IMG/VR virus record: IMGVR_UViG_3300025875_000003
Span: 60,314 to 124,313 of that record
DNA: 64,000 bases
Source of the DNA: a virus
Direction: 5' to 3' (one strand)
In this document: piece by piece, positions 8,966-30,176 of the stretch
How positions within the stretch are numbered: position 1 is the stretch's first letter
Layout of the letters: each line of letters starts with the position of its first letter
Program-made: the position numbers and the translations under genes
Notes under the pieces: generated by a model
The model's database searches: none
Seen by the model: the letters and a program-made list of their open reading frames with translations, nothing else
What the model was told of the DNA's origin: nothing

Positions 8966-9042
8966 GGCGGGTGTAGTTCAATTGGCAGAGCGTCGGATTG
9001 TGTCTCCGAATGTTGCGGGTTCGAGTCCCGTCGCCCACCCCA
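8966..9042 (+). tRNA. tRNA-His(GTG)
   Basis: G-1:C73, encoded CCA, loop TTGTGTC. Confidence 0.85.
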
Positions 9043-9043
9043 A

Positions 9044-9116
9044 GCCCCCTTAGCCCAACGGCAGAGGCATCGGGTTTAGGTCCCGACCAGTGCGAGTTCG
9101 AATCTCGTGGGGGGCA
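9044..9116 (+). tRNA. tRNA-Leu(TAG) with short variable loop
   Basis: Loop TTTAGGT; 5-nt variable region, like actinobacterial short-armed Leu tRNAs. Confidence 0.85.
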
Positions 9117-9156
9117 CCCTGTTGTGGTTGGTACTAACACGTGCGATAATCAAAGT

Positions 9157-9636: not shown

Positions 9637-9646
9637 CCACTTTCTA

Positions 9647-9720
9647 GCCCTCATCGTCTAGCGGTCTAAGACCCCGCCCTTTCAAGGCGGTAATCACCGG
9701 TTCGAATCCGGTTGGGGGTA
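9647..9720 (+). tRNA. tRNA-Glu(TTC)
   Basis: Cloverleaf, loop CTTTCAA. Confidence 0.9.
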
Positions 9721-9731
9721 CGCAGTACAAT

Positions 9732-9819
9732 GGAGAGGCCAACCGATAGGTGGCGGCGGTAACTGTCTTGAAAACAGTTTGCTCGAAAGGGCGTATGGGT
9801 TCGACCCCCATCCTCTCCG
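9732..9819 (+). tRNA. tRNA-Ser(TGA)
   Basis: Loop CTTGAAA, long variable arm with GAAA loop, G73. Confidence 0.9.
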
Positions 9820-9831
9820 CGTAGTAATCTC

Positions 9832-9907
9832 GGCCTCATCGTCTAGTTTGGTCTAAGACATCAGATTCTCAATCTGAAGATCGCGGGTTCAAATCCCGCT
9901 GAGGCTA
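9832..9907 (+). tRNA. tRNA-Glu(CTC)
   Basis: Cloverleaf, loop TTCTCAA. Confidence 0.9.
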
Positions 9908-10003
9908 CTCTCGTGGGTGCGGTGGACACCGTTCAAGTCGAGATGCAGACCGCAGGCTGTTGATAGTTGAGTCGGCCACCAGGATGAGACTCCTGCGGAT
10001 CAA

Positions 10004-10076
10004 TGGGGTATAACTCAGTTGGCAGAGTGGGAGATTGTTAATCTCTAAGTCGCAGGTTCGAGCCCTGCTACCCCAG
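10004..10076 (+). tRNA. tRNA-Asn(GTT)
   Basis: Cloverleaf, loop TTGTTAA. Confidence 0.9.
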
Positions 10077-10080
10077 CGCG

Positions 10081-10162
10081 GTGGTTGTCGTTTAATCGGC
10101 AGGACGTGTGCCGTTTCTAGAACGGGTAGTCGCATATGCGGGTTCGAATCCCGTCAACTACT
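10081..10162 (+). tRNA. tRNA with CTA anticodon (putative amber suppressor; this class is often auto-called Pyl)
   Basis: Acceptor GTGGTTG/CAACTAC, T-arm GCGGG-TTCGAAT-CCCGT, stem CCGT/ACGG around TTCTAGA; enlarged D-anticodon junction and variable region. Confidence 0.7.
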
Positions 10163-10170
10163 GGCTTTAA

Positions 10171-10243
10171 GCGCCGCTAACTCAATTGGCAGAGTTCTTG
10201 GTCTACACCCAAGCGGTTCGGGGTTCGAGTCCCCGGTGGCGCA
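10171..10243 (+). tRNA. tRNA-Val(TAC)
   Basis: Cloverleaf, loop TCTACAC (C33 instead of U33). Confidence 0.85.
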
Positions 10244-10252
10244 CGTTTTCTT

Positions 10253-10336
10253 GGAGAGTTCGACACGTGGTATGTCAACCCGGTTGCTATCCGGCTAAGC
10301 CGAAAGGCAGTCTCGGTTCGACTCCGAGGCTCTCCG
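10253..10336 (+). tRNA. tRNA-Ser(GCT)
   Basis: Loop TTGCTAT, variable arm GCC-GAAA-GGC, G73. Confidence 0.85.
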
Positions 10337-10344
10337 CTTTTTGA

Positions 10345-10417
10345 GCGCCTCTAGTTTAATGGCAAAACCCCTGACTTTTAATCAGTGAGATTCTGGGTTC
10401 GAATCCCAGGGGGCGCA
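10345..10417 (+). tRNA. tRNA-Lys(TTT)
   Basis: Cloverleaf, loop CTTTTAA. Confidence 0.9.
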
Positions 10418-10452
10418 CTTTCTTTTCATGGGTACAACGACGTATCACTAGT
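10417..10452 (+). promoter_or_regulatory. Bipartite phage promoter ACTTTCT-N17-CGTATCACTAGT directly before the ATG (copy 2)
   Basis: Same architecture as 7102-7137 and 53403-53438. Confidence 0.75.
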
Positions 10453-14356: not shown

Positions 14357-17300
14357 GTGCTGCGGCTGGCTGATGCGTTCGCTGAGGAGGAGGTGGAGAC
14401 CTCTTCCCTGAGCGACATTTTTGAAGAAGAGCCCGTCCCTCTGAACGTGTTCGTTGAGGACGGCAAGTTTTTGCGCAACCCTCCACTGTCACCTGTTCAG
14501 TTCGAGGCAGTTAAGCACATCGAGCGGGTCTATCTGCCTGAGATCTATCCACTCATGGCGGAAGAATTTGGCGGCTACTGGTCCGATCCGGTTCGGATGA
14601 CCAATCTCATCACCCTCCAGTGGGGCAAGGGGTGTATTTCTAAAAACGAAGATATCTATGATGCGCGTACGGGGCGTTGGAGCAAGATTTCTTCGGTTAA
14701 TGCGCCCCCGACTGTTGAGGGCACTTACGAGGTTAATTCGGACGGAGATACCACCCACCTTCCCGGACAGGCCGTGTTCACCAAGGGCACGAATCGCGTC
14801 CTTTCTGAGGGTTCTGTTCCTTTTTTTAGAGGCCGAGGCCAGATGGTAAAGGTCACCACGGCTCTAGGGGCCTCTATTGAGGTGTACGCTGGGCACTTGT
14901 TTGCTTCGTGGGCGGATCACAATCTGCCCTACAAGAATAGGTATCTTCGGGCCGAACCCGTCTGGCAGCAGGCTGCTTCGCTTCAGGCGGGTGACCGCAT
15001 TGCCACTTTGAGCAAGATTGACTGCTTGGAGCCTGTGTCTCAGGACGAGCGGGAAGTTGCGCTCGTAGGGTATTGGATTGGAGACGGGTCCATGCCTGTG
15101 GACGGTTCTACGTCGTGGGGTTTCTATATTGATGCTCAGGCAACCGAACTTCTGGAAACCTACATCGACTTGGTAGAATCTTATCCCGGCATCACCGCTA
15201 AGACCTCAATCATGGACTCGGGTGCTTTGCGCGTGCGAGCGACTACGACGGGTTCGGGGCGTAAGTTCTCTACTCCCCTGATCGACGTGATCCGCAAGTG
15301 GGGACTCTACGGCTCTCGGGCGTGGGATAAGCGGGTTCCAGATGAGTTTTTCTCGTTGCCTGACGATCAGTTGGCTATCTTTCTCTCTGCGCTATGGGAT
15401 ACGGACGGTTCCATTTATTTGAAGAAGGCAGGCACTAAGTCTCTGTCTCCGTGTTTTGAGTATGTCTCTGTCTCTGAGGGTCTTGCCAGGGACATCCAAC
15501 GCCTTTTGTTGCGGTTCGGTGTAATTTCTCGCCTTTCGTCTAAGACACCGACCTACACATACAGGGGAGAGAAGAAGACGGGGCGTACTGCGTGGCGTGT
15601 GACTGTTACGTCGGGTAAGTTTGCTGTTCGGCTCGCTTCAGTGCTTCGTCTTCACGGGCCTAAGGAAGCCCTGCGTCTCGTCTCCCTGGATTGGAATTAC
15701 GCTAATGAGCAGCAGAAGACGGACGGGGACGTGTATTGGGATACAGTCAAAAGTGTGGAGTTTTTGGGCGAGGACGAGTATTGGGACATTAATGTTCCTG
15801 AAGGCGGTTCTTACGTAGCAGGGTCCACAGCGCTTATTTCAAGTAACTCGGGGAAGGACCATGTGTGCCGCGTGGCTTCTCTGCGCGTGGCTTATATGTT
15901 GCTGTGCTTGAAGTCTCCGCAGAAGTACTATTCTATGCCCGAGCAGGACTCGATTCATCTACTTAACATTGCGTCCAACTCTCAGCAGGCGATGCGTGCT
16001 TTCTTCAAGCCAATGTCCCAAGCGGTTAAGAGGGGCTGGTTTTCAGACAAAGCAGATCCGACTCAGAACGCGATTCAGTACGCCAAGAACATTGAAGCCG
16101 TGTCTGGGCACTCCGAGGCAGAGGGCCAGGAGGGGCTGAACATCATGCTCGGGGTTGCTGACGAAATCGACGCCTTCAAGTCCAAGGGCGAGATGGTGGG
16201 CCAGGGCAAGAAGATGCGCGAGGCATCTACTTCTGCAGAGTCTATTCTTGACATGCTGAAAACTTCTGCTTCCACTCGTTTTCCGATGTGTTATAAGCGC
16301 GTGGCTATTTCCTTCCCTCGTTACCTAGGCTCTACCATTCAGAATCTGACTGAAGAGGCCAAGGAAGACTATCGCTCGCAGGGTCCATCTTCGATCTATT
16401 ATGTGTCTGGTCCTCTCGCTACGTGGGACGTGAATCCTCGTGTTGAGGGCAAGCATCAGTTTGCTACCGATTATCGCAAGGCTCCGGATGAGGCGGCTGC
16501 AAAGTACGAATGCAAGCCTACTCGTGCTACCGATGCCTATTTCCGTAACCCTGAAATCTTCCGTATCGCTGTGGATAGTCCGACTCAGCCTATCTCGGTT
16601 GACTATCGTCTAGAGGAGCATCTGTCGGAGCAGACCGGCTCTCTGGTCAAGTCGTGGGAGCCGGTGTTTACCTTCGCTCCGGACTTTGTACCTAAGGATG
16701 GTGCGCTGTATGCCATTCACGGTGACCTAGCCATTCGCGGGGACCGTGCTGGGGTGGCCATGTCTCACGTTGTGCGAACCGAGGAGCGCACTGAGAAGGT
16801 CATTGAAGAGGATGGAGAAGTTACTGAGCGCTCGCAGATGGTAGAAGTTCTGCGCAACGATTTCACCATCTCTCTGGAAGCAGACTTGGGTGAGTCTCCC
16901 CCGCGCGAGATTCAGATTCGCTGGCTGCGTCGTCTAGTGTTTGATCTCATCAAGCGAGGATTTTCTGTACGTCTGGTGACTTTGGACGGGTTTCAGTCTG
17001 TAGATACTATGCAAACGCTGACCAACCACGGCATTGAGACTGCGTTGGTTTCTACTGACCGCGACTCCAACATCTGGAAGACCGTCAAGGACGTAGCCTC
17101 TGAGGGTCGCCTTTCTATGCCTCATTCTGCTCTTCTCCAAAAGGAACTAGAAGCCCTTTCCCGAGTGGGTAATGGGAAGATCGATCACCCAGTAGGTGGT
17201 TCAAAAGATTTGGCAGATGCCTTCGCCTGTTCTCTTGTGGACGCCATTCAAATTGGTGGTTCGGAAGGCGGCGGCGTTGAAATTCTCTTGGGTGAGAATA

Positions 17301-17395
17301 TCTTTGAGACTGGCGGCGAAGTGAGTCTTTATGGCATGGACGATGAATTGCTCGATCTGTCGGGCCTAATGACCGGAGGATGGATCGATGGCTAA
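14357..17395 (+). CDS. terL: Terminase large subunit, intein-containing
   Basis: Walker A GKG|SGKD split by an intein; GVADEIDAF; nuclease YAIHGDLA, VTLDGFQS, IDHPVGGSKDLADA. Confidence 0.92.
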   Translation: MLRLADAFAEEEVETSSLSDIFEEEPVPLNVFVEDGKFLRNPPLSPVQFEAVKHIERVYLPEIYPLMAEEFGGYWSDPVRMTNLITLQWGKGCISKNEDIYDARTGRWSKISSVNAPPTVEGTYEVNSDGDTTHLPGQAVFTKGTNRVLSEGSVPFFRGRGQMVKVTTALGASIEVYAGHLFASWADHNLPYKNRYLRAEPVWQQAASLQAGDRIATLSKIDCLEPVSQDEREVALVGYWIGDGSMPVDGSTSWGFYIDAQATELLETYIDLVESYPGITAKTSIMDSGALRVRATTTGSGRKFSTPLIDVIRKWGLYGSRAWDKRVPDEFFSLPDDQLAIFLSALWDTDGSIYLKKAGTKSLSPCFEYVSVSEGLARDIQRLLLRFGVISRLSSKTPTYTYRGEKKTGRTAWRVTVTSGKFAVRLASVLRLHGPKEALRLVSLDWNYANEQQKTDGDVYWDTVKSVEFLGEDEYWDINVPEGGSYVAGSTALISSNSGKDHVCRVASLRVAYMLLCLKSPQKYYSMPEQDSIHLLNIASNSQQAMRAFFKPMSQAVKRGWFSDKADPTQNAIQYAKNIEAVSGHSEAEGQEGLNIMLGVADEIDAFKSKGEMVGQGKKMREASTSAESILDMLKTSASTRFPMCYKRVAISFPRYLGSTIQNLTEEAKEDYRSQGPSSIYYVSGPLATWDVNPRVEGKHQFATDYRKAPDEAAAKYECKPTRATDAYFRNPEIFRIAVDSPTQPISVDYRLEEHLSEQTGSLVKSWEPVFTFAPDFVPKDGALYAIHGDLAIRGDRAGVAMSHVVRTEERTEKVIEEDGEVTERSQMVEVLRNDFTISLEADLGESPPREIQIRWLRRLVFDLIKRGFSVRLVTLDGFQSVDTMQTLTNHGIETALVSTDRDSNIWKTVKDVASEGRLSMPHSALLQKELEALSRVGNGKIDHPVGGSKDLADAFACSLVDAIQIGGSEGGGVEILLGENIFETGGEVSLYGMDDELLDLSGLMTGGWIDG
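14633..15847 (+). mobile_element. Intein with LAGLIDADG endonuclease in terminase (405 aa, Cys1...Ser-Asn, +1 Ser)
   Basis: CISKNEDIYD start; VYAGHLF block B; LVGYWIGDGS and LSALWDTDGS; YWDINV...ISSN|SGKD. Confidence 0.92.
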
Positions 17396-18964: not shown

Positions 18965-19765
18965 GTGGCACGGTTCGCTGAGCAAGTTCGACGTGCGCGG
19001 ACGGCTCATCTGACTGTCAACGCTCTGGAGGACACAGCGCGCGCTCAGATCAACCAGGCCTTTGATGTTTGGGACGCAGGCGAACTGGACGCACAGACGG
19101 TCAGGCATCGTCTGGAACGCATCATCAGGGACGCTTACAGAGGCTCTGTAGCGCTTGCTGTGGCTCAGGTGGCGCAGGCAGCCGAGATCCCCGATTGGAA
19201 GCCTCGTGAGCGCGTTTTCTTGACTCCGTATCTGAAGTCTTTGCTGGAGGACGTACGCCGGAATCTTCGTGAGTACAAGTCAGCGGGCAAGACTGACGAA
19301 GCGCGTCGTCGTGCGCTCTTGCGCATGCGCCACAGCGCTGGGGTAGCAGCACAGCGGGGATGCACGGACGCCTTGGTTGCTGCGTACTCTGAGATGGAAG
19401 AGTTCGGTCTTTCCGTGCGCAAGGTGTGGATGGCCAACCTCACCGCTGGGACTCCTCCGTGTGATCAGTGCCGAGCCCTTCACGGGTCTGAGGTGGGCAT
19501 CTCGGAGGAATTCCCTCACGTAGGCTCTTACGTCCCCTACATCGACCTTGTGGGGCCTCCAGCGCATCCTCAGTGCCGTTGCTGGCTGGCCTTCCTGATC
19601 GTGTCGCTGGAGAACGCCTTCGACTCTCTGGACTTGGATACTCCTGCCGAATCTGTCGAGTCTTCCATGACTTCGGCTCAGGTCCGCTCTATGCCTGCCA
19701 AGTTGTTTTCTAGTTTCGTGACTTTCGTGTCCAGGGTGGTCAAGAAGTTAAGGAGTACGAAATGA
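18965..19765 (+). CDS. MuF-like (Mu gpF) minor head protein
   Basis: RKVW...CDQCRALHG...GPPAHPQCRCWL. Confidence 0.75.
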   Translation: MARFAEQVRRARTAHLTVNALEDTARAQINQAFDVWDAGELDAQTVRHRLERIIRDAYRGSVALAVAQVAQAAEIPDWKPRERVFLTPYLKSLLEDVRRNLREYKSAGKTDEARRRALLRMRHSAGVAAQRGCTDALVAAYSEMEEFGLSVRKVWMANLTAGTPPCDQCRALHGSEVGISEEFPHVGSYVPYIDLVGPPAHPQCRCWLAFLIVSLENAFDSLDLDTPAESVESSMTSAQVRSMPAKLFSSFVTFVSRVVKKLRSTK

Positions 19766-19980
19766 TTCGCTATCTCTTTGATTCAACTGAATCCGCAGCA
19801 GCCGCGCTGGGAGTTGTTCTAGTTCACGCACGAGGCTCTAAGGACGATTACACCTTTGGCAGTCTTTCCTTGTCTCAATTGACTGACTCAGGTATGTGGC
19901 TTACAGGTAACACGGAGTCAGTAGCAAAGTTGTTGGACGCAGTACCTGGGGCGGTACGTCAGGAGAGTTTTGGTCGATAG
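19762..19980 (+). CDS. Hypothetical protein
   Basis: 72-aa ORF with AGGAG RBS and 4-bp overlap. Confidence 0.6.
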   Translation: MIRYLFDSTESAAAALGVVLVHARGSKDDYTFGSLSLSQLTDSGMWLTGNTESVAKLLDAVPGAVRQESFGR

Positions 19981-19981: not shown

Positions 19982-20041
19982 GATGGGTAGAAAGAATCTT
20001 GTTCGTGACAAGATTTGTGAATCCCGGAGGATCGGCTGTAG

Positions 20042-23000
20042 ATGTTTGAGTTGGAGCAGTTTGAGGAAGTAGTCGCGCTTGCTGGCGTTCGTAAGGTTCG
20101 CACACAAGAAGGCGTTAAGTTCTATGGATTGCCGCTTGGTTCCCCAATCACGGCTGACCTCATTGCTCTGAAGGATAAGCAAGCCGCAGCCAAGGGCGTC
20201 AAGGCTCCCAAGGACGCCCTTACTTCCTCGTCTTCACGGGTAACTCCTAAGGCCCCCGGCTCGTCTTCTGTTGAGTCCGATTCCGGATCTGTTTCTGACG
20301 CTATCAAGGTCAAGAAGTCTACGATCTCTGGACCTGCCAAGTTCTCTGTGGGCGCTAAGGAATACGGGGCTCCCTCAGGATCTAAGTTTATTACTCCCCA
20401 GAATAACCCGAAGATTGCTTACGTTCGTACACCAGACGGCAAGATCCGAGCCTTCAATGAGCAGGGTGAGATTGAAGTCCCGGCGACTCTTTCCAACCTG
20501 TTGGCCAAGAAGTTCACGGCTGAGTACGCAGGCGACGATGCCTACGAAGTTGTCGATCTAGTTTCTGCTGCCGACGACCCGGACTCCCCCGTCCTTGGTT
20601 CTGCTGCCGACGCTCCCGCAGAGACTGTCGCTGTCTCTACTGAGGGAGATCCGGTATTCACCAAGAACGACCAGGGCGGCTGGACTCACGACGCGCTTGG
20701 CGTGGAGTTCTCGGACGAGGATGTTCAGACTCTAGTAGACAACGGCGAGATTCTTCTGTCTCCTCCGGTAGAGGGAGACACTGCCGCTCTGGAAGAGCAG
20801 ACCACGGCAGGTATGCCGAACTTCTCGGACATGACCAAGGCCGAGGCTATTTCTGCTTTCGATGCCATGCCTGCTGGATCTATTTTGGGCATCGCTGGAT
20901 CTGACGCAACCATTTCTAAGCAATCAGATGGAACGTGGATTTCAAAGAGCGGCATGCAGCCTTCGGGTAATCCTGTTACTACTGAAGATCTGGCTCTGGT
21001 TAAGAGCATTTTGGTTTCTGCGGATAAGGAGTATGCTCCGGATGTCGAAGGGCCGTCCTCAGAAGTTTCGGAAGTCAAGGAAGCCGAATCGCCTTCCGCC
21101 CCGGACAATAAGGGGAAGGTAAACGAGCCCAAGGGTCTTGACGCCGCACGTTCTGCTATTTCGTCTTATACGAACAAGGCAGCTTTTCCGTCTTCGGAAG
21201 TCTCTAATGTAGCCAAGATGCTTTCTATGGACGAGGCTATTGGAGTATTCGACGGAACCTATCCTCTCAATGTCAGTAAGATGATCGCCGGTATTGACAT
21301 TGACGGCCATGATCTGAAGTCTGCAATTAAGGCTGCACGTAAGACTAATGCGCAGAAGACCGTTGAATTGGGTCAAAATAAGTGGCATAACGAAGACGCA
21401 GTTCTTCGTGAGGTTGCTATTCAAGCAATCGGGGATAACTCCACAGATGTAGAAGACTTCAAGGCGAACTTGAAGAAGATCTCTACAGTGGACCCCCTGA
21501 GCAAGACCAAGGAAGACTCAGTAACCAAGGAGAACAAGGCTCCTAAGGCTAAGAGCGCGGGCGGGTCTGCTCCGGTCACTAAGCCGACCCCTGCCTCTGA
21601 GAAGGCTATTGGTTCTGAAAGCCTGAAGGTTGTTAGGGAGAACGAGAAGCAGTCGAAGCAGACTGTCTCCGAGGCGGTCGTTGACACTAAGAAGCCTGCC
21701 GGTCCTCCTCGCCTGCCTGAGTCCGGCAAGCCGCTTGCGAACCTTAATGAGGTGAGCGAGGTCAAGGCCGCTTTGGACCTGCTGCCCGAAGGCGCAATTC
21801 TGCGGCATGAAAGCCTGTTTTTCAAGTACACCAAGGATGCTTCTGGCTGGTGGGTGGCACCTTCTGGTTCTAAGAGGACTGCGGCGAGTTTCTTTACGGC
21901 AAAGGATCAAATGGTCCTTGAACTGCCGCGCAAGGAAGCAGACAAGCCCAAGGCTGCGCTGACTCCTGAGAAGACTGGCCCGGACTTCAAGGTAGGCGAG
22001 CAGTTCACCTTTACCTCGTACGAGGACTTGGATGCTCTACCCGCTGGAGCGGTTCTGGGTAAGTGGAACGTTTCGTGGACAAAGGTCTCTGACAACGCTT
22101 ACCTGACCGAGAATGGTACTACCGTTCCGAATTCTAACTTGCTTATTCGGGGCAATAGTATGCAGTATAAGATCGTTTCTCTTCCTGAGCCTGCCGCAAC
22201 CAAGTTTTCCACGGAGTATGCCAAGGGTGACAAGATCAAGAAGTACGGTCACCTTCGTGAGATGCCCGTAGGCACTAAGATCAAGTCTTCTGCCCTGGGA
22301 GCCTCTTATCTGTTGACAAAGGGTGAAGATGGTAAGTGGCACGAAAACGAGAATGGCGTTCCATGGAGTCCCGATACCCTTGCGGATGACATCATTGATG
22401 GCAATCTCACCATGGAAGCATCGGGTTCTGTAGGTGAGCAGTCGGACGATCTTGACGTGCAGTTGCTGCCCAACGGCATTGTCTACTCCAAGAAGCAGAT
22501 CGCTGACGCGGTAGACGCTCTGGAGGGACACAGCGGCTTCCAGATCGCCTATGGGTTCAAGACGATCCCGGATCACCCGCTTGCTCAAAAGGATGCTCAG
22601 AATGCCGTCAAGGAAGCCGCTATGGCAGCCTTCCCGGACCTGAAGCCCAAGCAGGCTTTCGTCGCCTTCCTGAAGGACAAGGGAGGCATCTCTGATGTGC
22701 CTGCATCTGTGGATGCAGCCGTTGGTGCGCCTGGACTCGCAGGCAACAAGATTCATCTCGGTGCGGACAACCCCCAGGCCAAGACTATTCAGGGCTATGA
22801 CGGCGGCGACTTTACGCCTGCCGATGTCGAGTCTGCTATTTCGATTCTTGAAGCGTTCGGCGGCAAGGCGTTCAAGGCTGAGTTGAACAAGAAGGGCAAT
22901 CCGCTTGGTATTCTGAACCCCAATGACCTTGTGGGCTTCAACAAGGACAAGACTGTCACCAAGCAGAAGTTCATCGACCTTCTGAAGTCGAGCCTTGCTG

Positions 23001-26000
23001 ACTACCAGGAGAATGCTCCCGAGCCTGAGCCGGTGGAGTTGGAGCAGTCTGATCCGGTTGAGGCCAGCAAGACTCTTTCTGAAAGTGACCTTCAGAACCT
23101 CCCAAGCGGGTCAATTATAGTTTCAGACGAGGGCTGGACCTTTACTAAGCATGGTCCAGATTACTGGATCGACTCAGAGGGTGAAGACTTCTTCATCGGT
23201 GATCTTGTTAGCATTTCTTCTGGGTACACGCTGAATTCCAAGCCTGCCGAGCCTGAGCCTAATGTTCCGGATTACGCCAAGGCACCCGAGGCTGTTGCAG
23301 CCAAGACGCCTCAGCCCAACAACGGCAAGGTTTATTGGGACGGCAAGAAGGCGTCTGAGGCTCCAGAGGGTGCCCAGGTTCAGTTTGCCGATAAGAGCGT
23401 GCTTTACAAGACTGCAAATGGAAAGTGGTCTCCTTATAACAATGGCTCATCAGGCGCAATTTCAGATTCTGTCATTCAGAGTAGCCTAGACGATGGGGGC
23501 CTGACGCCTTCTAACAACGAAGAACCTCTTGCCGAGTGGGAGAAGGAACTTCTTGCGGGTGTAACTGACCTCGACGCGCCCATTGGTGGAGACCCCTGGG
23601 ATGGCAAGAATGCTGCTGACGCTCCTGTTGGTGCGAAGGTGCACTCCGCTTCCCCCATGGGGTCATATTGGCAGAAGAGGGAAGATGGCGAGTGGCAGGC
23701 GTACTGGAAGGATTCTGGTGAGCCTAAGTCGTATTCTTGGTCGGAGGCCCATGTCCAGGGCTATCTAGAGAGCGGTATGCTGCTTCCCTACACCGAAAAC
23801 AAGGAGAACGAACAGAAGGAAGACTTTGATTCTCCGGAAGACGCTGAGACGGGCCCGCAGACCAATCCTTCTGGCCTGACTCCCGGTAAGTACTCCACCG
23901 GCAAGGGCAAAGCCTACATGGTAGTTGCTGCGGACGGTACTGCCATCTACGTGCAGGGCAACGGTGTAGCCAAGTACATCGACACCGATAAGGTGAAGAA
24001 GAATTACGACGCGGGCATGAGCACCTATGGTGGTCTGGTAGACGCGCCTGAGCCTTCCGACCCCGCAGACAAGAAGCCGGTAGCCAAGGCCGTCAAGAAG
24101 GGTCCGGTGGAACTTCCTTCGGGCACCTACTACTTGGGTGATTCGACCAAGAGCAAGACGACCGTCTACGTCGTTGACGGCGATAAGGTCAAGATCTACA
24201 AGGGCAAGGAAACGTGGTCCTTTAACGAGGTCGTGCAGCCGGACGACAGTGTTTCTGTTGAGGCTGTGCCTCTAGACAAGATCAAGACCGCGTACCACCA
24301 GGGCAAGATTGTTGACGCTGATGGCAACTCGGTAGTGCCCAAGGGTTACTCTGGTCCCATCACCATGTTCAACGTGCCTACGTCTACGCAGGCTCTGGTC
24401 ATGGCTCGCAAGTCGATTCAGGATGATCCTGAGTTCAAGGCTATTGGTACTAATTTTGTTCAGGCTAAGTTGAAGGCCCTGGGGTTCACCACCAACCTGA
24501 GCAAGGTTGTAGACAAGATCAAGACAGAGCAGCCCGATTGGGGTGAGACCCTGGGCTCTACATATGGTCTTACTTACAGTGCGGATAACTCCTGGCACGA
24601 GCCCATTCGTGAGAAGATTCTTGCGCAGATGGATGCTCTGCTGGAGGGTGCAGAGACGACTATTCCTGAGTCAAACGCTTCTGGTCTGTTCGAGTGGGGC
24701 CAGGACGGTTCTGCCCAGATGCCTCTGGAACTTGCTTCTATGAGTTCTTCCTCTGGAAGCACGACGGCCAACAATGCCAAGGCCAAGGCCATTGCGCAAG
24801 CATTTGGTGGCGGGAAGATCCTGTACCCACCTACGGGCAAGTATGAGAAGTACTACTGGCTACAGGCTTTTGAGCAGGGCAACTTCGCTGTGATGTATCA
24901 GTATGAGGTTAACTCGTTTGCCGGGAAGGACAAGTCTCACCCCGCTGGTTATCTGCATCCTGGCTATGAGGGCAACGAAGAGACCAACCACGTTAAGTGG
25001 GGCGCGGTTGTGTCCGGCGAGGTTGCTGCGGGCGTTGAGGTAGAAGGTGACTGGTCGAAGATCTCGGTTAACAACTGGTCGCCCGCTGAGATTGATAACT
25101 ATCTCATTGCTGCCAAGATGCAGAATCCTCAGTATCTTACTCTGGCCCAAAAGCGCAAGTGGGTTCAGTACCATAAGAACGGTGGTAAGGGAGTAGTAGA
25201 CGCCATTTCGGCTTCGGCTGCGCAGGCAAAGAATGAGGGCAAGCCCGCTCTATCTCCTGCACCAGCGTGGACGGACGACATTGTTCCGGCTACTGAGTAT
25301 GACCACATGTTCGATGAAGGTCCGTATCCCAGTGGGGATAAGTGGCAGAATGTTAGTTACGCCGTTGTTCGTGCTTGGGCTAAGGATAACCTGAAGAACG
25401 AAGAATTTTTGGAGATATTGAAGGCTGCCCATGACGAGCAGGGCTACCACCTATACACCGATGGTAACGGCCTTCCAGATATGGACAATCTTTCGTCTTA
25501 TCCTGTACGTGCCGCAGTTTCCAAGTATTGGAACGGTAAGTACGAGGCCTACCAGGAAGAGTTGAACAAGCCGGTCTACACCAAGATCAAGTTGATCGAG
25601 GGCGAAGACGCGGGTACTCACGATGTCTGGATCACTAAGGACCAGTTCGACCGCAAGTACGTCTTCAAGCCGGTAGATTCTCCAGATAAGCGCTGGCGCG
25701 CCGAGATTGAGACTATTGCTAGTCAGATGAGCGTGGCGTGGGGGTTCCGTACTCCTAATGCACAGATCATGGAGTTGGACGGCGAAGAAGGCATATTGAT
25801 GTCTTTCGCTGACCATGTTTCTTCTTTCAAGGGCAAGAACGGTAACTCGATTCAGATGTCTTCTCTGACGGAGAAGCAGGTTGGTCAGGTTGCCGCCGAG
25901 CACGTCCTTGACTGGATTCTAGACAATGATGACACGCATTCATCCAACCTGCTCATGGGTACGGATGGAAATGTTATCGGCATCGACAAGGGTCGCGCGT

Positions 26001-28462
26001 TCTTCGTCTACGGCAACTGGAACGGATTGAGTGCGGATACTCAGGCGCATTCCAACGCCAACTTGGTATACACCAAGTTGTACGATGACATTCGTTCAGG
26101 AAAGGTCACTCAGGAACAGGCACAGGCTGCGTACTTCGCTGCCATGAAGGCCGCCAAGCGCATCCAGAACTCTGATGACGCCGCTGCTGAGGCTCGCATT
26201 CGTGAGGCTACTGCCAATCGTCCGAAGTGGTCCCCGCCTGGCTACATGACACACTTCAGCCATGCGCAGGCTCCGCAGAACCAGGACCAGTTGGTTGCGG
26301 CATTCCTAGAGCGTAAGCAAAATATGGTCGAAGAGATCGGAGAGATGTGGGATCGCATTTTCGCTGCGTCTCCGTATGACAAGCCTGAGGCTCCCGATAA
26401 GGCCTTGGGCGAGGACCACTTCTCGGGTTGGGAAGAGCCGGGCTTGGCTGAGGCTGCTGTGGCCTCCAAGGTCTGGGGTACGTCTGCGCTGCACGCATCT
26501 CCTGGCATCCAGAGTGGTGCGTCCTTGTTGTGGCATGAGAAGACGAAGGATGACAAGGATTTGTTGAAGGGCACGTTGAAGGTAGGCAACCTGACCCAGA
26601 AGAAGATTCTGGGCTTCATGAAGGGCAAGGCAGGTTCGCCTGCAAATAGCGAGTACCAGTCTTCCCAGATCGACGGGTTCCCCCACACCACCGAGTGGAA
26701 GTCAATTACATCTGCTGCGGGCAAGGATGCGTCCAAGCATGTAGAGGACAAGGAGTACACGGCTGAGGTTTGGGACAACTTGGCAACCCTGGACGATACG
26801 CTTGATAAGGACCTAGAGTTCTGGGCTCCCGACTTGGAGCCGGATGAGTACAGCGAATATGTCTTCTTCCCTTCAGGTAAGCAGGTTCCTGTCAAGGGTC
26901 TTTTCCAGTATCGACAGGCCCTGGATCACTACAAGAATCTCATTTCCAAGGCTCGCACTGCTCGTGATGAAGGAAAGACCACAGATAAGTACGAGTTCAC
27001 TGTGTTCTCTCCCACTCCGATCAAGAAGAACGGGCAAACTCTCACAGGGCCAGATGGCGAGTCCTACACGGAGATGTACGGCAGCGGGTGGTTCCACACC
27101 ACCAAGACTGGCGTAGAGGTCGTTCCTGCGCCCCCTGAGGGCGTTCTGAAGGGCACTGCGCCAGGTTGGGAGAACCCCGCTGCGGCCGAGGCTCCCATGT
27201 CTGATCCGGTAATCTACAAGCAGGTCAACGCACACGAGTACGGCGGCGAGTTGCTTACGGACGGAACCAAGAAGAATTCTGGTTCTAGCAGCAGTTCGGG
27301 GCATGATGGGCAGCAGTACGAGGCCACTCTGCCTACCGGAGAGGTGATTACCTTCCGCAATGGTGATGACACACTTACCTCGTTGAGTCAGCAAGGTCGC
27401 ATTACCTACACTCTGTCACAGGATGACCCGGAGGCTTCTCTGCTACGTGTTCAGGCTCAGTTCGACAAGATGGGCCTAGATATGTCGGGCGCTCAGCCCG
27501 AAGACGCCGAAAACGTCTACTGGCGGTCTATGTTCTCTCGCGTTCTTCTCAGCAAGGGCGGTGGGGCCAAGATTGAGGCCGCTCGTAATAAGATCAATGA
27601 GAATAAGCAAGACATTTCAGCCAAGACGGGCGTTTCTTTCTATGACCTCAATGAGTTCTCTGTCGTAGAGGGCATTGGCCTGTCCATGACTTCGGAGCAA
27701 GAACACGAATTTTGGCACAACCTGGCTGTCGAGACGTGGGGCTCAGAAAAGGTAAATGATTGGATTGCAGCAGACAAGCACCTTCCCCAGTACCAGCATT
27801 TGAATCTGGCTGACCCGGAGATGAATACCGGAATGCCCTATTTCAATCGTCTTGATGTTGATGTGGACGAACTGAAGAAGACCAAGACCCTTGTTGCCAT
27901 CGGCAACAACGGTAAGGATGATTCTCTGTTGAAGTACATCACCTCTGGTGGTATGGCTTCTACTGAAGAGCGTCTGCGTCTTCTAGGACACTACAAGACG
28001 GGTGCTTCTTCTAGTGAGGATCAAGATACTGGTGGGGCCACGGGTGTATTTACACGTCTTGCCATTCCGGGCGGCAATGCAGAATACTCGGGCTCGATGT
28101 TCGGGTCTTACGTGGCTTATTGGAGCCCTGAGGTGTTGACCCAGACCGGGACGTATTCGTACACCGACGACAGTTACGGACGATGGTCTTCCCTGTCGAG
28201 CAATAATAAGTATGACCCGGTGGAATCTGCCAGGAAGAACACAGATTCGAGCAACGAGACGCTTGTCCAGAATACGATGAGTATCTTCGACTATCTGGAA
28301 GTGTTCTCCTTCGAGAACGCGACCAAGCGGAACGAGGCTATTCAACGTATGAAGGCCCTGGGGTTTTCTACCCTCCGGGGTATGCCTATTGAGGATCGAT
28401 TCGTTATGCGTGAGAACATTAAGGAAGCAGTGGCTAAGGTGCGTGCATCGTGGAACGTGTGA
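20042..28462 (+). CDS. Giant head-module protein (2806 aa) with internal repeats, a PI3K/PI4K/HipA-like kinase domain and a possible C-terminal ADP-ribosyltransferase-like domain
   Basis: Between MuF and protease genes; GTHDVW..YVFKP, RAEIE..A, DWILDNDDTHSSNLL, IGIDKGRAF; repeated P.G..+...K..DG.W units. Confidence 0.7.
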   Translation: MFELEQFEEVVALAGVRKVRTQEGVKFYGLPLGSPITADLIALKDKQAAAKGVKAPKDALTSSSSRVTPKAPGSSSVESDSGSVSDAIKVKKSTISGPAKFSVGAKEYGAPSGSKFITPQNNPKIAYVRTPDGKIRAFNEQGEIEVPATLSNLLAKKFTAEYAGDDAYEVVDLVSAADDPDSPVLGSAADAPAETVAVSTEGDPVFTKNDQGGWTHDALGVEFSDEDVQTLVDNGEILLSPPVEGDTAALEEQTTAGMPNFSDMTKAEAISAFDAMPAGSILGIAGSDATISKQSDGTWISKSGMQPSGNPVTTEDLALVKSILVSADKEYAPDVEGPSSEVSEVKEAESPSAPDNKGKVNEPKGLDAARSAISSYTNKAAFPSSEVSNVAKMLSMDEAIGVFDGTYPLNVSKMIAGIDIDGHDLKSAIKAARKTNAQKTVELGQNKWHNEDAVLREVAIQAIGDNSTDVEDFKANLKKISTVDPLSKTKEDSVTKENKAPKAKSAGGSAPVTKPTPASEKAIGSESLKVVRENEKQSKQTVSEAVVDTKKPAGPPRLPESGKPLANLNEVSEVKAALDLLPEGAILRHESLFFKYTKDASGWWVAPSGSKRTAASFFTAKDQMVLELPRKEADKPKAALTPEKTGPDFKVGEQFTFTSYEDLDALPAGAVLGKWNVSWTKVSDNAYLTENGTTVPNSNLLIRGNSMQYKIVSLPEPAATKFSTEYAKGDKIKKYGHLREMPVGTKIKSSALGASYLLTKGEDGKWHENENGVPWSPDTLADDIIDGNLTMEASGSVGEQSDDLDVQLLPNGIVYSKKQIADAVDALEGHSGFQIAYGFKTIPDHPLAQKDAQNAVKEAAMAAFPDLKPKQAFVAFLKDKGGISDVPASVDAAVGAPGLAGNKIHLGADNPQAKTIQGYDGGDFTPADVESAISILEAFGGKAFKAELNKKGNPLGILNPNDLVGFNKDKTVTKQKFIDLLKSSLADYQENAPEPEPVELEQSDPVEASKTLSESDLQNLPSGSIIVSDEGWTFTKHGPDYWIDSEGEDFFIGDLVSISSGYTLNSKPAEPEPNVPDYAKAPEAVAAKTPQPNNGKVYWDGKKASEAPEGAQVQFADKSVLYKTANGKWSPYNNGSSGAISDSVIQSSLDDGGLTPSNNEEPLAEWEKELLAGVTDLDAPIGGDPWDGKNAADAPVGAKVHSASPMGSYWQKREDGEWQAYWKDSGEPKSYSWSEAHVQGYLESGMLLPYTENKENEQKEDFDSPEDAETGPQTNPSGLTPGKYSTGKGKAYMVVAADGTAIYVQGNGVAKYIDTDKVKKNYDAGMSTYGGLVDAPEPSDPADKKPVAKAVKKGPVELPSGTYYLGDSTKSKTTVYVVDGDKVKIYKGKETWSFNEVVQPDDSVSVEAVPLDKIKTAYHQGKIVDADGNSVVPKGYSGPITMFNVPTSTQALVMARKSIQDDPEFKAIGTNFVQAKLKALGFTTNLSKVVDKIKTEQPDWGETLGSTYGLTYSADNSWHEPIREKILAQMDALLEGAETTIPESNASGLFEWGQDGSAQMPLELASMSSSSGSTTANNAKAKAIAQAFGGGKILYPPTGKYEKYYWLQAFEQGNFAVMYQYEVNSFAGKDKSHPAGYLHPGYEGNEETNHVKWGAVVSGEVAAGVEVEGDWSKISVNNWSPAEIDNYLIAAKMQNPQYLTLAQKRKWVQYHKNGGKGVVDAISASAAQAKNEGKPALSPAPAWTDDIVPATEYDHMFDEGPYPSGDKWQNVSYAVVRAWAKDNLKNEEFLEILKAAHDEQGYHLYTDGNGLPDMDNLSSYPVRAAVSKYWNGKYEAYQEELNKPVYTKIKLIEGEDAGTHDVWITKDQFDRKYVFKPVDSPDKRWRAEIETIASQMSVAWGFRTPNAQIMELDGEEGILMSFADHVSSFKGKNGNSIQMSSLTEKQVGQVAAEHVLDWILDNDDTHSSNLLMGTDGNVIGIDKGRAFFVYGNWNGLSADTQAHSNANLVYTKLYDDIRSGKVTQEQAQAAYFAAMKAAKRIQNSDDAAAEARIREATANRPKWSPPGYMTHFSHAQAPQNQDQLVAAFLERKQNMVEEIGEMWDRIFAASPYDKPEAPDKALGEDHFSGWEEPGLAEAAVASKVWGTSALHASPGIQSGASLLWHEKTKDDKDLLKGTLKVGNLTQKKILGFMKGKAGSPANSEYQSSQIDGFPHTTEWKSITSAAGKDASKHVEDKEYTAEVWDNLATLDDTLDKDLEFWAPDLEPDEYSEYVFFPSGKQVPVKGLFQYRQALDHYKNLISKARTARDEGKTTDKYEFTVFSPTPIKKNGQTLTGPDGESYTEMYGSGWFHTTKTGVEVVPAPPEGVLKGTAPGWENPAAAEAPMSDPVIYKQVNAHEYGGELLTDGTKKNSGSSSSSGHDGQQYEATLPTGEVITFRNGDDTLTSLSQQGRITYTLSQDDPEASLLRVQAQFDKMGLDMSGAQPEDAENVYWRSMFSRVLLSKGGGAKIEAARNKINENKQDISAKTGVSFYDLNEFSVVEGIGLSMTSEQEHEFWHNLAVETWGSEKVNDWIAADKHLPQYQHLNLADPEMNTGMPYFNRLDVDVDELKKTKTLVAIGNNGKDDSLLKYITSGGMASTEERLRLLGHYKTGASSSEDQDTGGATGVFTRLAIPGGNAEYSGSMFGSYVAYWSPEVLTQTGTYSYTDDSYGRWSSLSSNNKYDPVESARKNTDSSNETLVQNTMSIFDYLEVFSFENATKRNEAIQRMKALGFSTLRGMPIEDRFVMRENIKEAVAKVRASWNV

Positions 28463-28749
28463 CTAAGAAGTTTGTAAGAGAAACCTTTCCCAGCGGAGCA
28501 GCAGCCTTTTTTTCGGCAGACCGGCCGGTGTTTGATTTGGTTGATCTAAGTGTTAAGGACGTAGAAGGAAAGACTTATCTACAGGGATGGACTTCTCCCA
28601 ACAAGGATTTTGTTTTTGACGTCACTCAGCCCATCGAAACGGATAACGGCTGGCGGGTCAAGACCCTGGAAGGCAAGAAGGTTTTTCTCTCGCCTCTGTC
28701 GAAGGACAGAGGAGACCGTATGACGGCACGAGTAAAGGACAGTATCTGA
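28450..28749 (+). CDS. Small hypothetical protein overlapping the end of the giant gene
   Basis: 99-aa ORF; translationally coupled. Confidence 0.65.
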   Translation: MERVTKKFVRETFPSGAAAFFSADRPVFDLVDLSVKDVEGKTYLQGWTSPNKDFVFDVTQPIETDNGWRVKTLEGKKVFLSPLSKDRGDRMTARVKDSI

Positions 28750-29048
28750 TGGCTACTTACTTGATTCACAAGAACCTTGATGGCGAACCCATTGGCTCCT
28801 GGAATGATGCGGGTGAATCCGCATATGCGGCCGGGTTTGACGATCAGAGGGGCAGTGGTCGTCTTACTGTTCAGGACAAGGGCTGGGGCGTTCCCTGGTC
28901 TGTCTTTGCACGTCGATTGGCTGCCACCACTAATTTTCATGAGTGGTGGGGTGTACTAGAACATAATGGCACCCCAGAGGCTGCGTTGGATGATGTCCGG
29001 AACACATTTTTTTCTCGTGCCGCTTCTCGTACTCCCCGAGATCGTTAA
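28749..29048 (+). CDS. Small hypothetical protein
   Basis: 99-aa ORF; TGATG coupling. Confidence 0.65.
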   Translation: MATYLIHKNLDGEPIGSWNDAGESAYAAGFDDQRGSGRLTVQDKGWGVPWSVFARRLAATTNFHEWWGVLEHNGTPEAALDDVRNTFFSRAASRTPRDR

Positions 29049-29068
29049 TGTCAACTACAAGCCTGATT

Positions 29069-29084
29069 GGTCGATAGTATGAGT
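29069..29084 (+). promoter_or_regulatory. Putative late promoter GGTCGATAGTATGAGT directly before ATG 29085 (copy 3)
   Basis: Same spacing to the ATG as copy 1. Confidence 0.8.
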
Positions 29085-30176
29085 ATGGCCGGTTTTGCGA
29101 TTGTTCCTCAGCCTCACGGCAGTGAAGGCTTTGTGAAGTTGTCGCGTACCCCCCAAGGCAAGATTTACGAGAAGCACATTCTTAATTACGGCCCGCTGTT
29201 CTACCCCGGTGTACGCGGCGGCGCGGTAGACATTAATGACGCTTGGGCGGACAGGCTTATTGCCAACTTCAAGGCTCAGGTTTGCGATATTGTTCAGGTG
29301 CCGCTGGCCGGTGCTAATAATGAGCATTCGGAAGATCCTTCCAGAAATATCGGTGAAGTCGTAGGCCTCGTAAAGCGCAACAAGAAGATCTATGCGCAGA
29401 TAGATGCACGAGACGAGGTAGCCGCCTCTCGTCTAGGTAAGACGCTGCTAGGGGCTTCTGCGCTGTTGCACCTTAACTACACGGATACTCGTACAAATCA
29501 AAAGGTTGGTCCTACGCTGCTGCATGTGGCGGTTACGAATCGTCCTTATGTTGTAGGTCTTGAAGATTACAAGGAAGTTATTGCCGCAAGCGCTATTGGT
29601 GCAAATGCGGTCGATGGTATGAGGGAAGCGGTAGTGCTTTCCGCCCCGAACTCGCAGGAGGACAAGATGGAACTCGATGACCTGAAGGCTGAACTGAAGG
29701 CCGATTACGGCATCGACGTTGACGCGCTTGTGCTCAGCGCGGGCGTCGTGGACAACGCTGTTGCGCTCAGCAATTCCGTACAGGAGGCCCTCACCGAGCA
29801 GGGGTTTCTTGCCCTTTCCAACGACGGCGAGCCCTCTACAGAGGACTTGGTCGGTGCCATCAACAAGGCTGGCGAGCAGATTGTGTCTCTGACCGCTGAG
29901 GTTGAGGCTGTTCGTACTGAGAAGGCCAAGACTGATGCTGAGTCACATGTTGACTCTCTGGTTCGTTCGGGTCACATTCTCCCCAAGAATCGAGACGCAC
30001 AGGTAACTCTTCTGCTCTCTAATGCAGAACTGTTCGACCAGTTGCTGCCGGAGCAGCCTCTAGTTCGTCTCTCAAATGAGGGGGGCGAGATCGGTACCCA
30101 TCCCGCCGACGAGAAGCCTGCTGGCGATGTTGCCGCTGAGGTCAATCGCCTCGCAGAACTTGCCAAGAACGCCTGA
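29085..30176 (+). CDS. Capsid maturation protease/scaffold (Mu gpI/Z-like)
   Basis: NNEHSEDPSRNIGEV; VGPTLLHVAVTNRPYV; C-terminal coiled scaffold; start reassigned from 29067. Confidence 0.8.
   Translation: MAGFAIVPQPHGSEGFVKLSRTPQGKIYEKHILNYGPLFYPGVRGGAVDINDAWADRLIANFKAQVCDIVQVPLAGANNEHSEDPSRNIGEVVGLVKRNKKIYAQIDARDEVAASRLGKTLLGASALLHLNYTDTRTNQKVGPTLLHVAVTNRPYVVGLEDYKEVIAASAIGANAVDGMREAVVLSAPNSQEDKMELDDLKAELKADYGIDVDALVLSAGVVDNAVALSNSVQEALTEQGFLALSNDGEPSTEDLVGAINKAGEQIVSLTAEVEAVRTEKAKTDAESHVDSLVRSGHILPKNRDAQVTLLLSNAELFDQLLPEQPLVRLSNEGGEIGTHPADEKPAGDVAAEVNRLAELAKNA

Follow-up and report, generated by a model that had tools for sequence, protein, structure and literature searches.

A giant phage head-operon protein predicted to carry a PI3/PI4-kinase-like domain and a DarT-fold ADP-ribosyltransferase domain

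The DNA analyzed here is a 64,000-nucleotide stretch (referred to below as the window) that covers positions 60314 to 124313, the second half, of the 124,313-bp IMG/VR phage record IMGVR_UViG_3300025875_000003, for which CheckV completeness is 100%. Among its head genes lies a giant open reading frame (ORF; window positions 20042 to 28462, + strand) that encodes 2806 amino acids (aa) from the first start codon following a stop. We propose, with a probability of roughly 0.6, that the product is a polyvalent head-operon effector that is packaged and delivered, that it carries a kinase and a DarT-fold ADP-ribosyltransferase (ART), and that two small genes downstream belong to the same cassette. 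Two hallmarks of polyvalent proteins were found in the giant protein: at least two effector domains in one polypeptide (by fold, the kinase and the ART) and association with head and packaging genes.

Relatives were collected in several ways. When the giant protein's last 1200 residues were compared exhaustively, by phmmer, with 1.84 billion representative proteins, 958 relatives passed E ≤ 1e-3, of which 189 also passed E ≤ 1e-30; a word-indexed search returned 11 giant relatives of 2300 to 3700 aa with 24 to 47% identity. The word-index search with the N terminus was too insensitive for a survey of cargo diversity. A single-sequence scan of viral contigs was empty and an alignment query was needed; 22 related IMG/VR loci, several on contigs of 120 to 136 kb, were fetched. 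The relatives over which conservation is counted below (~150) come from a library that had been clustered at 50% identity. The largest relative seen was a 4245-aa ORF (locus L018, 941 to 13675) in which the kinase-ART C terminus is present.

Pairwise comparisons split the giant protein into a chassis, residues 1 to ~1080, and a cargo, from about residue 1411 to the end, that is collinear in all kinase-bearing relatives (Table 1). The first 340 residues of the chassis are presumed to be a packaging or targeting part. Eight repeat copies were located at residues 184 to 220, 266 to 314, 573 to 611, 657 to 694, 731 to 777, 1010 to 1047, 1097 to 1142, and 1184 to 1231. The mid-domain near the end of the chassis is 58% identical between two sister phages, one with a NUDIX cargo (L019) and one with the kinase-ART cargo (L011), and similarity ends afterwards. 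Within the cargo, H1639-P-G, Y1687, H1711, and several Trp residues of the pre-kinase region are conserved in ~121 relatives; this region (residues 1411 to 1841) had no match in Pfam, PHROGs, or NCBIfam, and a language-model atlas was uninformative for it (score, 0.80). A YWR motif ahead of the ART core (in residues 2383 to 2603) is near-invariant, with Y2493 kept in 154 of 155 relatives. Searches of domain-sized chunks against Pfam, PHROGs, and NCBIfam gave nothing outside the kinase except a weak PHROG "RNA ligase" match and a sub-threshold match to the SCO1664 family, and phmmer and profile searches with the whole protein against PDB sequences gave nothing. The PHROG match (phrog_2659, E 3e-4, profile positions 125 to 226 of 891) falls at window positions 20042 to 20404 (residues 10 to 121) and suggests that large phage proteins with other cargo may also begin with the N-terminal module.

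The initial annotation had described an intact atypical kinase core in the middle of the cargo, and structure prediction agreed with it. PF00454 (PI3_PI4_kinase; cut-off, 27.1 bits) scored 24.1 bits on the whole protein, and 401-aa chunks searched in isolation reached 27.3 and 27.7, with the match restricted to the catalytic and activation-loop segment; a kinase profile run against PDB sequences found only PI4K-beta, at E ~0.2. An AlphaFold2 (AF2) model of residues 1607 to 2260 was built from a 17-sequence alignment of domain cuts (pLDDT, 84). Foldseek returned at least 500 matches to this model at E ≤ 1e-3, and among the matches listed, 46 of 46 were kinases. VIA-align, over 213 to 226 aligned residues, gave Z scores of 14.8 for Helicobacter pylori CtkA, 14.7 for PI4KIIalpha, 12.8 for VPS34, and 12.5 for mTOR. 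By these comparisons, residues ~1842 to 2116 are predicted to adopt a bilobal PI3/PI4-kinase-like fold.

The catalytic set of this fold is conserved. The motifs named in the initial annotation lie exactly where it placed them, with K1876 of YVFKP at nucleotide 25667, D1964 of DNDDTHSSN at 25931, and I1981 of IGIDKG at 25982; RAEIE corresponds to residues 1886 to 1890. The ATP-binding Lys (K1876), the helix-C Glu (E1890), the catalytic Asp (D1964), the Asn five residues on (N1969), and the metal-binding Asp (D1982) are invariant in a 12-protein alignment and are kept in 141, 134, 142, 136, and 146 of 152 relatives, respectively. In five of eight shorter family members scanned, the N-lobe gave sub-threshold HipA_C matches of 21 to 28 bits (cut-off, 30.5). 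CtkA (3akl) and the HipA family represent the closest kinase fold (Z 14.8 over 213 residues), and the catalytic D-x4-N and the Asp of IDKG are present; the differences are a sequence identity of only ~12% and the placement here as one domain of a giant phage protein. Because the closest bacterial neighbors, CtkA (a secreted Ser/Thr kinase) and HipA, are protein kinases, a protein substrate appears more likely than a lipid for the predicted kinase, although PI4KIIalpha scores alike.

For the C terminus, the initial annotation had noted a weak resemblance to DarT/PARP-like toxins in a string that corresponds to residues ~2630 to 2672. Modeling pointed in the same direction, predicting a DarT-like ART fold with a conserved Glu at the expected position. 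The AF2 model of residues 2380 to 2806 was computed from an 18-sequence alignment (pLDDT, 85.4; pTM, 0.84), and its best Foldseek matches in the PDB were SopF (E 2.6e-3; probability, 0.99) and DarT of several species (TM on target, 0.39 to 0.52). VIA-align was used for a second look at the Foldseek matches, and a Foldseek-independent VIA scan covered 48,161 representative chains; the results agreed. DarT1 of Escherichia coli C7 (8baq) scored Z 10.8 with a root mean square deviation of 3.3 Å (153 of 208 aligned), followed by the DarTs of Thermosipho (7omu; Z 10.2), Thermus (7omv; Z 9.7), and Mycobacterium tuberculosis (7yk3_C; Z 9.3). Only 4 of the 48,161 chains reached Z ≥ 8, and all were DarT. 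Below DarT, the ART superfamily was represented throughout (Tpt1, Z 7.6; SopF, 7.1 to 7.3; CopC, 6.0; OspC3, 5.9; CteC, 5.1), and unrelated folds began near Z 4.9. Alignments with SopF and with CopC/OspC3 reach into the helical part of residues 2383 to 2603, and the language-model atlas put the C-terminal domain near the OspC family (0.92), which we treat as a lead only. Residues ~2604 to 2794 are accordingly modeled as an ART fold closest to DarT.

Candidate active-site residues could be named from conservation and from comparison with DarT. E2739 opens the predicted strand ahead of the last core strand and is kept in 152 of 155 relatives; the corresponding counts are 148 for R2644, 143 for R2646, 143 for S2656, 144 for D2660, 144 for R2672, 139 for Y2705, 153 for D2710, and 155 for G2713. 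From these, R2644/R2646, S2656, D2660, R2672, Y2705, D2710, and E2739 are taken as candidates. In DarT1, E152, R52, D54, N104, and M71 are essential, and the "Y" of the H-Y-E triad is replaced by Ser (PMC11543638). R2644/R2646 align by eye to "KQRRL" of DarT, in which the proton-relay Arg is R52/R51 and the catalytic Glu is E152 (DarT1) or E160 (DarT2). Three segments may be paired by eye with DarT: SLLKYITSGG with LPSIIxxGxL, EERLRLL with IKQRRLxEL, and NETLVQN with QAEFLVEN. None of 18 ART-module sequences matched the DarT model or the Pfam ART models; profile and phmmer searches with the C-module against PDB sequences found nothing; and PF03496 (ADPrib_exo_Tox, the Alt/VIP2 R-S-E type) matched neither the giant protein nor its ART-module relatives, while it found McProf gp54, a prophage protein taken up below, at E 4.7e-16. 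The domain is thus plausibly an ART whose fold resembles that of DarT and whose Glu and Arg residues would form a plausible catalytic set; by sequence it lies outside the DarT family.

A nucleic-acid target is favored for the predicted ART because DarT and Tpt1 are its fold neighbors, and a protein target is left open because SopF, CopC, and CteC are protein-modifying enzymes. Charge was considered as a clue to the substrate and rejected, the median isoelectric point (pI) being 7.05 for 155 ART domains versus 7.2 for DarTs. The fold could also belong to an NAD+ glycohydrolase or to a Tpt1/KptA-like RNA 2'-phosphotransferase working with the kinase, e.g., against NAD+-based or tRNA-cleaving defenses. 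Tpt1 is the next-best fold neighbor after DarT, NADases occur among ART folds (PMC13285283), the phage invests heavily in tRNA genes, and the H of H-Y-E is not conserved by eye; but the four DarTs score clearly higher (Z 9.3 to 10.8) and are covered nearly end to end, and the kinase belongs with the protein/lipid kinases rather than with P-loop polynucleotide kinases, so that we regard this alternative as distinctly unlikely.

The kinase and the ART form a conserved pair. When domain hidden Markov models (HMMs) were run over 157 family proteins, the ART was found in 155 and the kinase in ~152, including members of only 1050 to 1350 aa. Independent shuffling of the two domains, which coordinates of the best-matching stretches had suggested, was rejected, as both are found in nearly all relatives by the domain HMMs. 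In loci L013 and L015, the kinase-ART unit is a separate ORF of ~1300 aa located 3' of an ORF with N-terminus-like and MuF-like matches. That either domain, or both, might be a pseudoenzyme kept for binding or scaffolding is extremely unlikely: sequence similarity to characterized enzymes is marginal and McProf gp54 has Gln in place of the catalytic-loop Asn, but the full kinase set and the ART Glu/Arg set are kept in ~90 to 98% of ~150 relatives, a pattern typical of selection on catalysis.

A second, independent pairing was found in prophages. McProf gp54 (L001, 4567 to 8124) and four sister proteins of Mycobacteroides prophages contain, at residues ~479 to 645, a kinase-like module homologous to the kinase of the giant protein (24% identity, E 7e-16), preceded by a minor capsid domain of the VG15/MuF type and followed by an ART of the VIP2/C3 type (PF03496). 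Proteins of this group are annotated only as a "minor capsid and ADP-ribosyltransferase fusion," with the kinase-like module unannotated. The same kinase family therefore appears to be paired with two unrelated types of ART. By analogy, the fusion of a kinase-ART unit to a head protein in the McProf-type case offers the best architectural argument for head packaging of the giant protein.

The genomic position of the giant gene points the same way. Upstream are genes for the terminase large subunit, a Mu-type portal, the MuF-like protein, and a 72-aa ORF; downstream are two 99-aa ORFs (A and B), the Mu-like protease I, a 129-aa ORF, and an E-family major capsid protein, and this order (terminase-portal-MuF-72aa-giant-A-B-protease-129aa-capsid) is kept in 22 related IMG/VR loci. 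The placement between MuF-like and protease genes, noted in the initial annotation, was exact in position and coordinates, with PF04233 and PF10123 matches flanking the gene. Polyvalent proteins are predicted to be packaged and injected, and precedents come from those that are packaged in virions and whose domains include ART, kinase, GNAT, and Nudix (PMC5512222, PMC9503650), as well as from T4 Alt, a head-carried ART (PMC9503650).

The cargo, in turn, is exchanged among phages with the same head genes. Five distinct loci (Magritte, L017, L019/L020, L023, and L024) have a syntenic giant with the same chassis and no kinase or ART. In L019/L020 (10001 to 17854) the cargo is a NUDIX domain (residues 1370 to 1486; 34.9 bits), and gp17 of Magritte has a borderline GNAT match (19.6 bits; cut-off, 20.7). 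To follow the distribution of cargo, an IQ-TREE tree of capsid plus protease was used. Cargo-less phages were interspersed among cargo-bearing ones (L002 plus L023 as sister to L003 plus L026; L019 as sister to L011/L004/L007), parsimony gave 4 changes, and at least 3 of these are forced by strongly supported branches. Sister pairs have the N-terminal ~425 aa and the mid-domain in common, after which all similarity is lost.

These data bear on whether the enzymes act in the producing cell or in the head, modifying the capsid, the portal, or the phage DNA (as an anti-restriction mark), or whether the protein serves chiefly as a scaffold or an internal part of the head, with its enzymes secondary. 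Such a role would suit a gene set among the assembly genes for MuF, protease, and capsid and a large repeat-rich N-terminal half that is conserved whatever the cargo. DarT-type enzymes modify DNA bases (PMC11543638), and Iyer et al. consider, in the portion of PMC9503650 drawn on here, that head-linked ARTs might counter immunity aimed at the packaging apparatus. Yet the cargo is dispensable, being replaced by NUDIX and others in close phages with the same head genes, which argues against a core role in assembly; DarT1 and DarT2 are active on single-stranded DNA and inactive on double-stranded DNA (PMC11543638); and NAD+ and ATP are not expected within a filled capsid. We consider action during assembly unlikely.

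The two small ORFs travel with the cargo. The initial annotation had described two translationally coupled 99-aa ORFs; both exist, and their starts overlap the preceding stops (GTGA and TGATG), which fits such coupling. A family HMM for ORF A matched 11 kinase-ART loci plus 3 more weakly, and one for ORF B matched 12 kinase-ART loci plus 2 distant ones; taken together, the two ORFs are found in 13 to 14 of 15 kinase-ART loci, whereas all 5 cargo-less loci are without them, both by HMM and by HMM-HMM comparison (probabilities below 1.5%). ORF B has 30 unnamed homologous clusters of 88 to 99 aa, several of them on contigs equal in length to contigs with homologues of the giant protein. Since the kinase-ART unit and both small ORFs are co-present or co-absent at least 3 independent times, the 3' part of the giant gene, ORF A, and ORF B behave as one exchangeable cassette, as far as their distribution among loci indicates. 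Exchange of cargo together with small ORFs matches what polymorphic toxin systems show for their toxin-tip/immunity cassettes (PMC3482391, PMC5576092), and it strengthens the idea that A and B are immunity genes but is not proof of it. An additional homologous ORF of 411 to 512 aa lies between ORF B and the protease gene in L003 (21015 to 22250) and L009 (20678 to 22216).

An arrangement like that of MuF polymorphic toxins, suggested in the initial annotation, was borne out in part: small ORFs do lie downstream and were gained or lost with the kinase-ART unit at least 3 times, but strict membership in the MuF class did not hold, MuF being a separate gene and an integrase being absent. This matters for a further possibility, that the giant protein is a polymorphic toxin for bacterial competition or a Bxa-like fitness factor released on lysis, with A and B as classical immunity proteins for the producer and its kin. 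A conserved N terminus, an exchangeable enzymatic C terminus, and co-exchanged small ORFs are the architecture of polymorphic toxins (PMC3482391, PMC5576092), and the ART toxin Bxa has two immunity proteins (PMC11699363). Against this, no integrase or resolvase (tyrosine or serine recombinase) was found in the complete 124-kb genome and 18 tRNA genes are clustered at window positions 7894 to 10418, so the phage is probably lytic, which would leave no surviving producer to protect; nearly all reports of MuF toxins, moreover, concern temperate phages (PMC5576092). A competition toxin is therefore quite improbable. One of the tRNA genes (10080 to 10163) has the anticodon CUA, is labeled tRNA-Pyl by ARAGORN, and is a possible amber suppressor; the giant gene's own stop is TGA.

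Table 1. Coordinates of the giant gene, its domains, and adjacent features (window positions)
Feature	Position	Strand	Remarks
MuF-like minor head protein	18965..19765	+	266 aa, separate gene; PF04233, 30.9 bits (cut-off, 29.6); position kept in related loci
72-aa ORF between MuF and giant gene	19762..19980	+	tblastn hits in this place, 37 to 48% identical, in 11 related loci
Hairpin AATCTTGT / TCGTG loop / ACAAGATT	19995..20015	+	Perfect 8-bp stem, 5-nt loop, read from sequence; in 61-nt gap
Giant gene, putative polyvalent head-operon effector	20042..28462	+	2806 aa; 958 relatives; syntenic in 22 IMG/VR loci
N-terminal conserved region (residues 1-340), start of chassis	20042..21061	+	Conserved in every relative, giants with other cargo among them; 32% identity to Magritte gp17 over residues 14-187, E 2e-16
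Span of eight ~40-aa repeats, hPxG...(D/N)GxW	20591..23734	+	Iterated HMM on the protein itself; domain E 1e-4 to 4e-24
Mid-domain (residues 816-995), final chassis part before cargo boundary	22487..23026	+	50% identity to P0010
Pre-kinase conserved region (residues 1411-1841)	24272..25564	+	Collinear in all relatives; residues 1607-1841 helical by AF2
Predicted PI3/PI4-kinase-like (CtkA/HipA-like) kinase domain (residues 1842-2116)	25565..26389	+	Fold search; PF00454; catalytic set K1876/E1890/D1964/N1969/D1982
Inter-enzyme region (residues 2117-2382)	26390..27187	+	Beta-sheet plus helices by AF2; collinear conservation; no family matched
N-terminal part of C-module (residues 2383-2603)	27188..27850	+	Small beta domain and helical domain ahead of ART core
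Predicted DarT-like ADP-ribosyltransferase domain (residues 2604-2806)	27851..28459	+	Predicted fold and conservation
Small ORF A	28450..28749	+	99 aa, pI 9.0; start GTG 28450 or GTG 28459; overlaps TGA 28460-62 of giant gene
Small ORF B	28749..29048	+	99 aa, pI 5.8; ATG 28749 overlaps TGA 28747-49 of ORF A by 1 nt (TGATG)
Mu-like prohead protease I (gpI family), downstream boundary of cassette	29067..30176	+	PF10123, 29.2 bits (cut-off, 25.2); 41 to 58% identity in related loci

With these features in place, the reading of the giant protein as a packaged effector with two enzymatic activities can be set against the points that count against it. What points to packaging and injection is gene position together with precedent, and what ties the ART to DarT is the predicted fold. 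The Pfam DarT model (PF14487) found nothing in the whole phage genome at E ≤ 10, and hhalign of the 155-row ART alignment with 14 genuine DarTs was not significant (probability, 0.5%; E 0.11). The sole local alignment in that non-significant match covers the strand and helix after the catalytic Glu and places E2739 at most 1 residue off the register of the Glu in "KQAEFL" of DarT. The position of the NAD-binding His of H-Y-E is occupied, by eye, by a residue other than His. No ADP-ribose erasers of the Macro, NADAR, or ARH type were found in the 124-kb genome. ORFs A and B have no match in Pfam, PHROGs, other families, or the PDB and no recognizable fold, and hitch-hiking by adjacency would yield the same pattern of A and B with the cargo. 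A MuF domain was found in none of 8 shorter family members scanned, and MuF itself is a separate gene in this phage. The kinase-ART cargo has no cultured phage carrier, the nearest isolate, Magritte, being without it, and a host search in a genome collection gave only metagenome bins that are probably mis-binned phage contigs. Even so, none of the four alternatives raised above (assembly, competition, NADase or phosphotransferase, and pseudoenzyme) fits the cargo-exchange and conservation data as well as a delivered kinase-ART effector.

The role that we propose runs as follows. (i) The giant protein would be made late, alongside the head proteins. (ii) Its conserved chassis (residues 1 to ~1080) probably brings it into the procapsid. 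(iii) It would probably enter the next host cell along with the DNA. (iv) At the start of infection, the kinase would be expected to phosphorylate host proteins and the ART, with E2739 as its proposed catalytic glutamate, to ADP-ribosylate a host macromolecule using NAD+. (v) In the producing cell, ORFs A and B would most likely restrain the enzymes or aid their loading. A bolder version, which we think unlikely, is that the two enzymes are an obligate functional pair delivered from the capsid, in which, for example, the ART marks the DNA or RNA of the host or of rival phages just as infection begins, the kinase disables a host response or gates the ART, and A and B are a new class of non-enzymatic inhibitors. 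Were this true, the phage would be turning the chemistry of the anti-phage toxin DarT on its host, and the recurrence of the kinase beside a VIP2-type ART in mycobacterial prophages would point to a general, undescribed kinase-ART effector logic.

The noncoding DNA ahead of the giant gene was also inspected. The initial annotation had given the gene its own late promoter, and this found no support: a sigma-70-like promoter was sought in the 61-nt gap and none was found, and 12-mers of the gap had only scattered one-mismatch matches in the 64-kb window, at chance level. A ribosome-binding site, GGAGGA, lies at 20026 to 20031, 10 nt ahead of the start. Directly before it, ~25 nt 5' of the start codon, is the hairpin of Table 1, which has no U-tract and could be a processing or translational control element. 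The preceding 72-aa ORF matched no family. Farther upstream, the terminase large subunit gene (14357 to 17395) encodes 1012 aa and has a LAGLIDADG-type intein inside (PF14528, E 8e-16, with a weak Intein_splicing match); the terminase is ~630 aa in relatives such as Magritte.

The sole isolate relative among GenBank phages is Microbacterium phage Magritte (133 kb); the capsid genes of the two phages share 76% nucleotide identity. In Magritte, the syntenic gp17 (1991 aa, annotated as "hypothetical"; L002, 9923 to 15898) has only residues 14 to 187 and some repeats in common with the giant protein.

How does the giant protein compare with known systems? It resembles polyvalent proteins (Iyer et al. 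2017, PMC5512222; PMC9503650) in its very large size and multidomain makeup, in being encoded next to genes for head and packaging functions, and in combining several effector enzymes (ART and kinase here; NUDIX and possibly GNAT in sisters). The polyvalent kinase of Iyer et al., as characterized in the parts of that work drawn on here, is a clade of the Ser/Thr/Tyr type without a C-lobe from Verrucomicrobia-Chlamydia and Bacteroidetes (pro)phages; the kinase of the giant protein differs, being PI3/PI4K-, CtkA-, and HipA-like in its predicted structure, with a C-lobe that is helical. The phage ART families that the same portions of PMC5512222 and PMC9503650 name as head-associated are N4-like, PART, ORF28, p0068, Alt/VIP2, and Mod, with no DarT-fold ART among them, and these portions describe no fixed kinase-ART pair with two co-exchanged small genes for polyvalent proteins.

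The closest structural match, DarT of the DarTG system (8baq, 7omv, 7omu, 7yk3; PMC11543638), aligns over 151 to 162 residues, nearly all of DarT; a conserved Glu appears to lie at the start of the strand that bears the catalytic Glu in DarT, and, by eye, conserved Args fall at the positions of the phosphate-binding and proton-relay Arg. The two differ in that no relation is evident at the sequence level and that the domain here forms the C terminus of a phage protein of 2806 aa, where additional beta and helical subdomains precede it. The giant gene also lacks an adjacent Macro or NADAR antitoxin and is encoded by a phage, whereas DarT belongs to a bacterial defense locus.

MuF polymorphic toxins (Jamet et al. 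2017, PMC5576092) likewise have a toxin-like enzyme linked to a MuF head gene with small ORFs (<150 aa) directly downstream, the feature for which they serve as a precedent. There, however, MuF is an N-terminal fusion, whereas here it is a separate 266-aa gene two genes upstream and the giant protein has no MuF match; and those toxins belong to temperate phages, whereas this phage is without an integrase and appears lytic. The MuF-VIP2 fusions of Microbacterium phages (PMC7302621) and McProf gp54 carry a VIP2/C3-type ART in contrast to the predicted DarT fold, and the giant protein is 2 to 10 times larger and has a repeat-rich chassis; gp54 shares with it the kinase-like module ahead of the ART. 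T4 Alt and P1 DarB are head-carried enzymes that are injected with DNA and work from the onset of infection. Alt, an ART of the R-S-E (VIP2) type, is ~76 kDa in size and has one enzymatic domain; no homology to it was detected. For the giant protein, packaging is suggested by synteny. Finally, the Bxa/Bsi/BAH system of a Bacteroides prophage (PMC11699363) comprises a phage ART, an N-terminal trafficking domain common to diverse toxins, and two downstream protective genes. One of its immunity proteins is a recognizable ADP-ribosylhydrolase, whereas ORFs A and B match no family and no Macro, NADAR, or ARH is encoded by this phage.

Proteins of this broad type are thus already known: polyvalent proteins were defined by Iyer et al., who list ART, kinase, GNAT, and Nudix among the domains, and MuF-ART fusions occur in Microbacterium and Mycobacterium phages. 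In the parts of this literature drawn on here, we found no description of a DarT-fold ART clade in phage head effectors, one that is absent from the Pfam ART families, nor of the fixed pairing with a CtkA/HipA/PI4K-like kinase, its parallel pairing with a VIP2-type ART, or a two-gene companion set exchanged along with it.

Head-packaged multi-enzyme effectors are predicted to be widespread and almost none are characterized, and the family described here is large, with 958 representative clusters. Its sister phages, with the same head genes and a kinase-ART, a NUDIX, or another cargo, provide a natural experiment, and annotation of McProf gp54-like proteins would be corrected by recognition of the kinase-like module. 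ORFs A and B are two candidate inhibitor proteins. The DarT fold, known from a bacterial anti-phage DNA toxin, would now be found on the phage side of the conflict, and if the enzymes are active, they would represent a new nucleic-acid or protein ADP-ribosylation system together with a new injected kinase.

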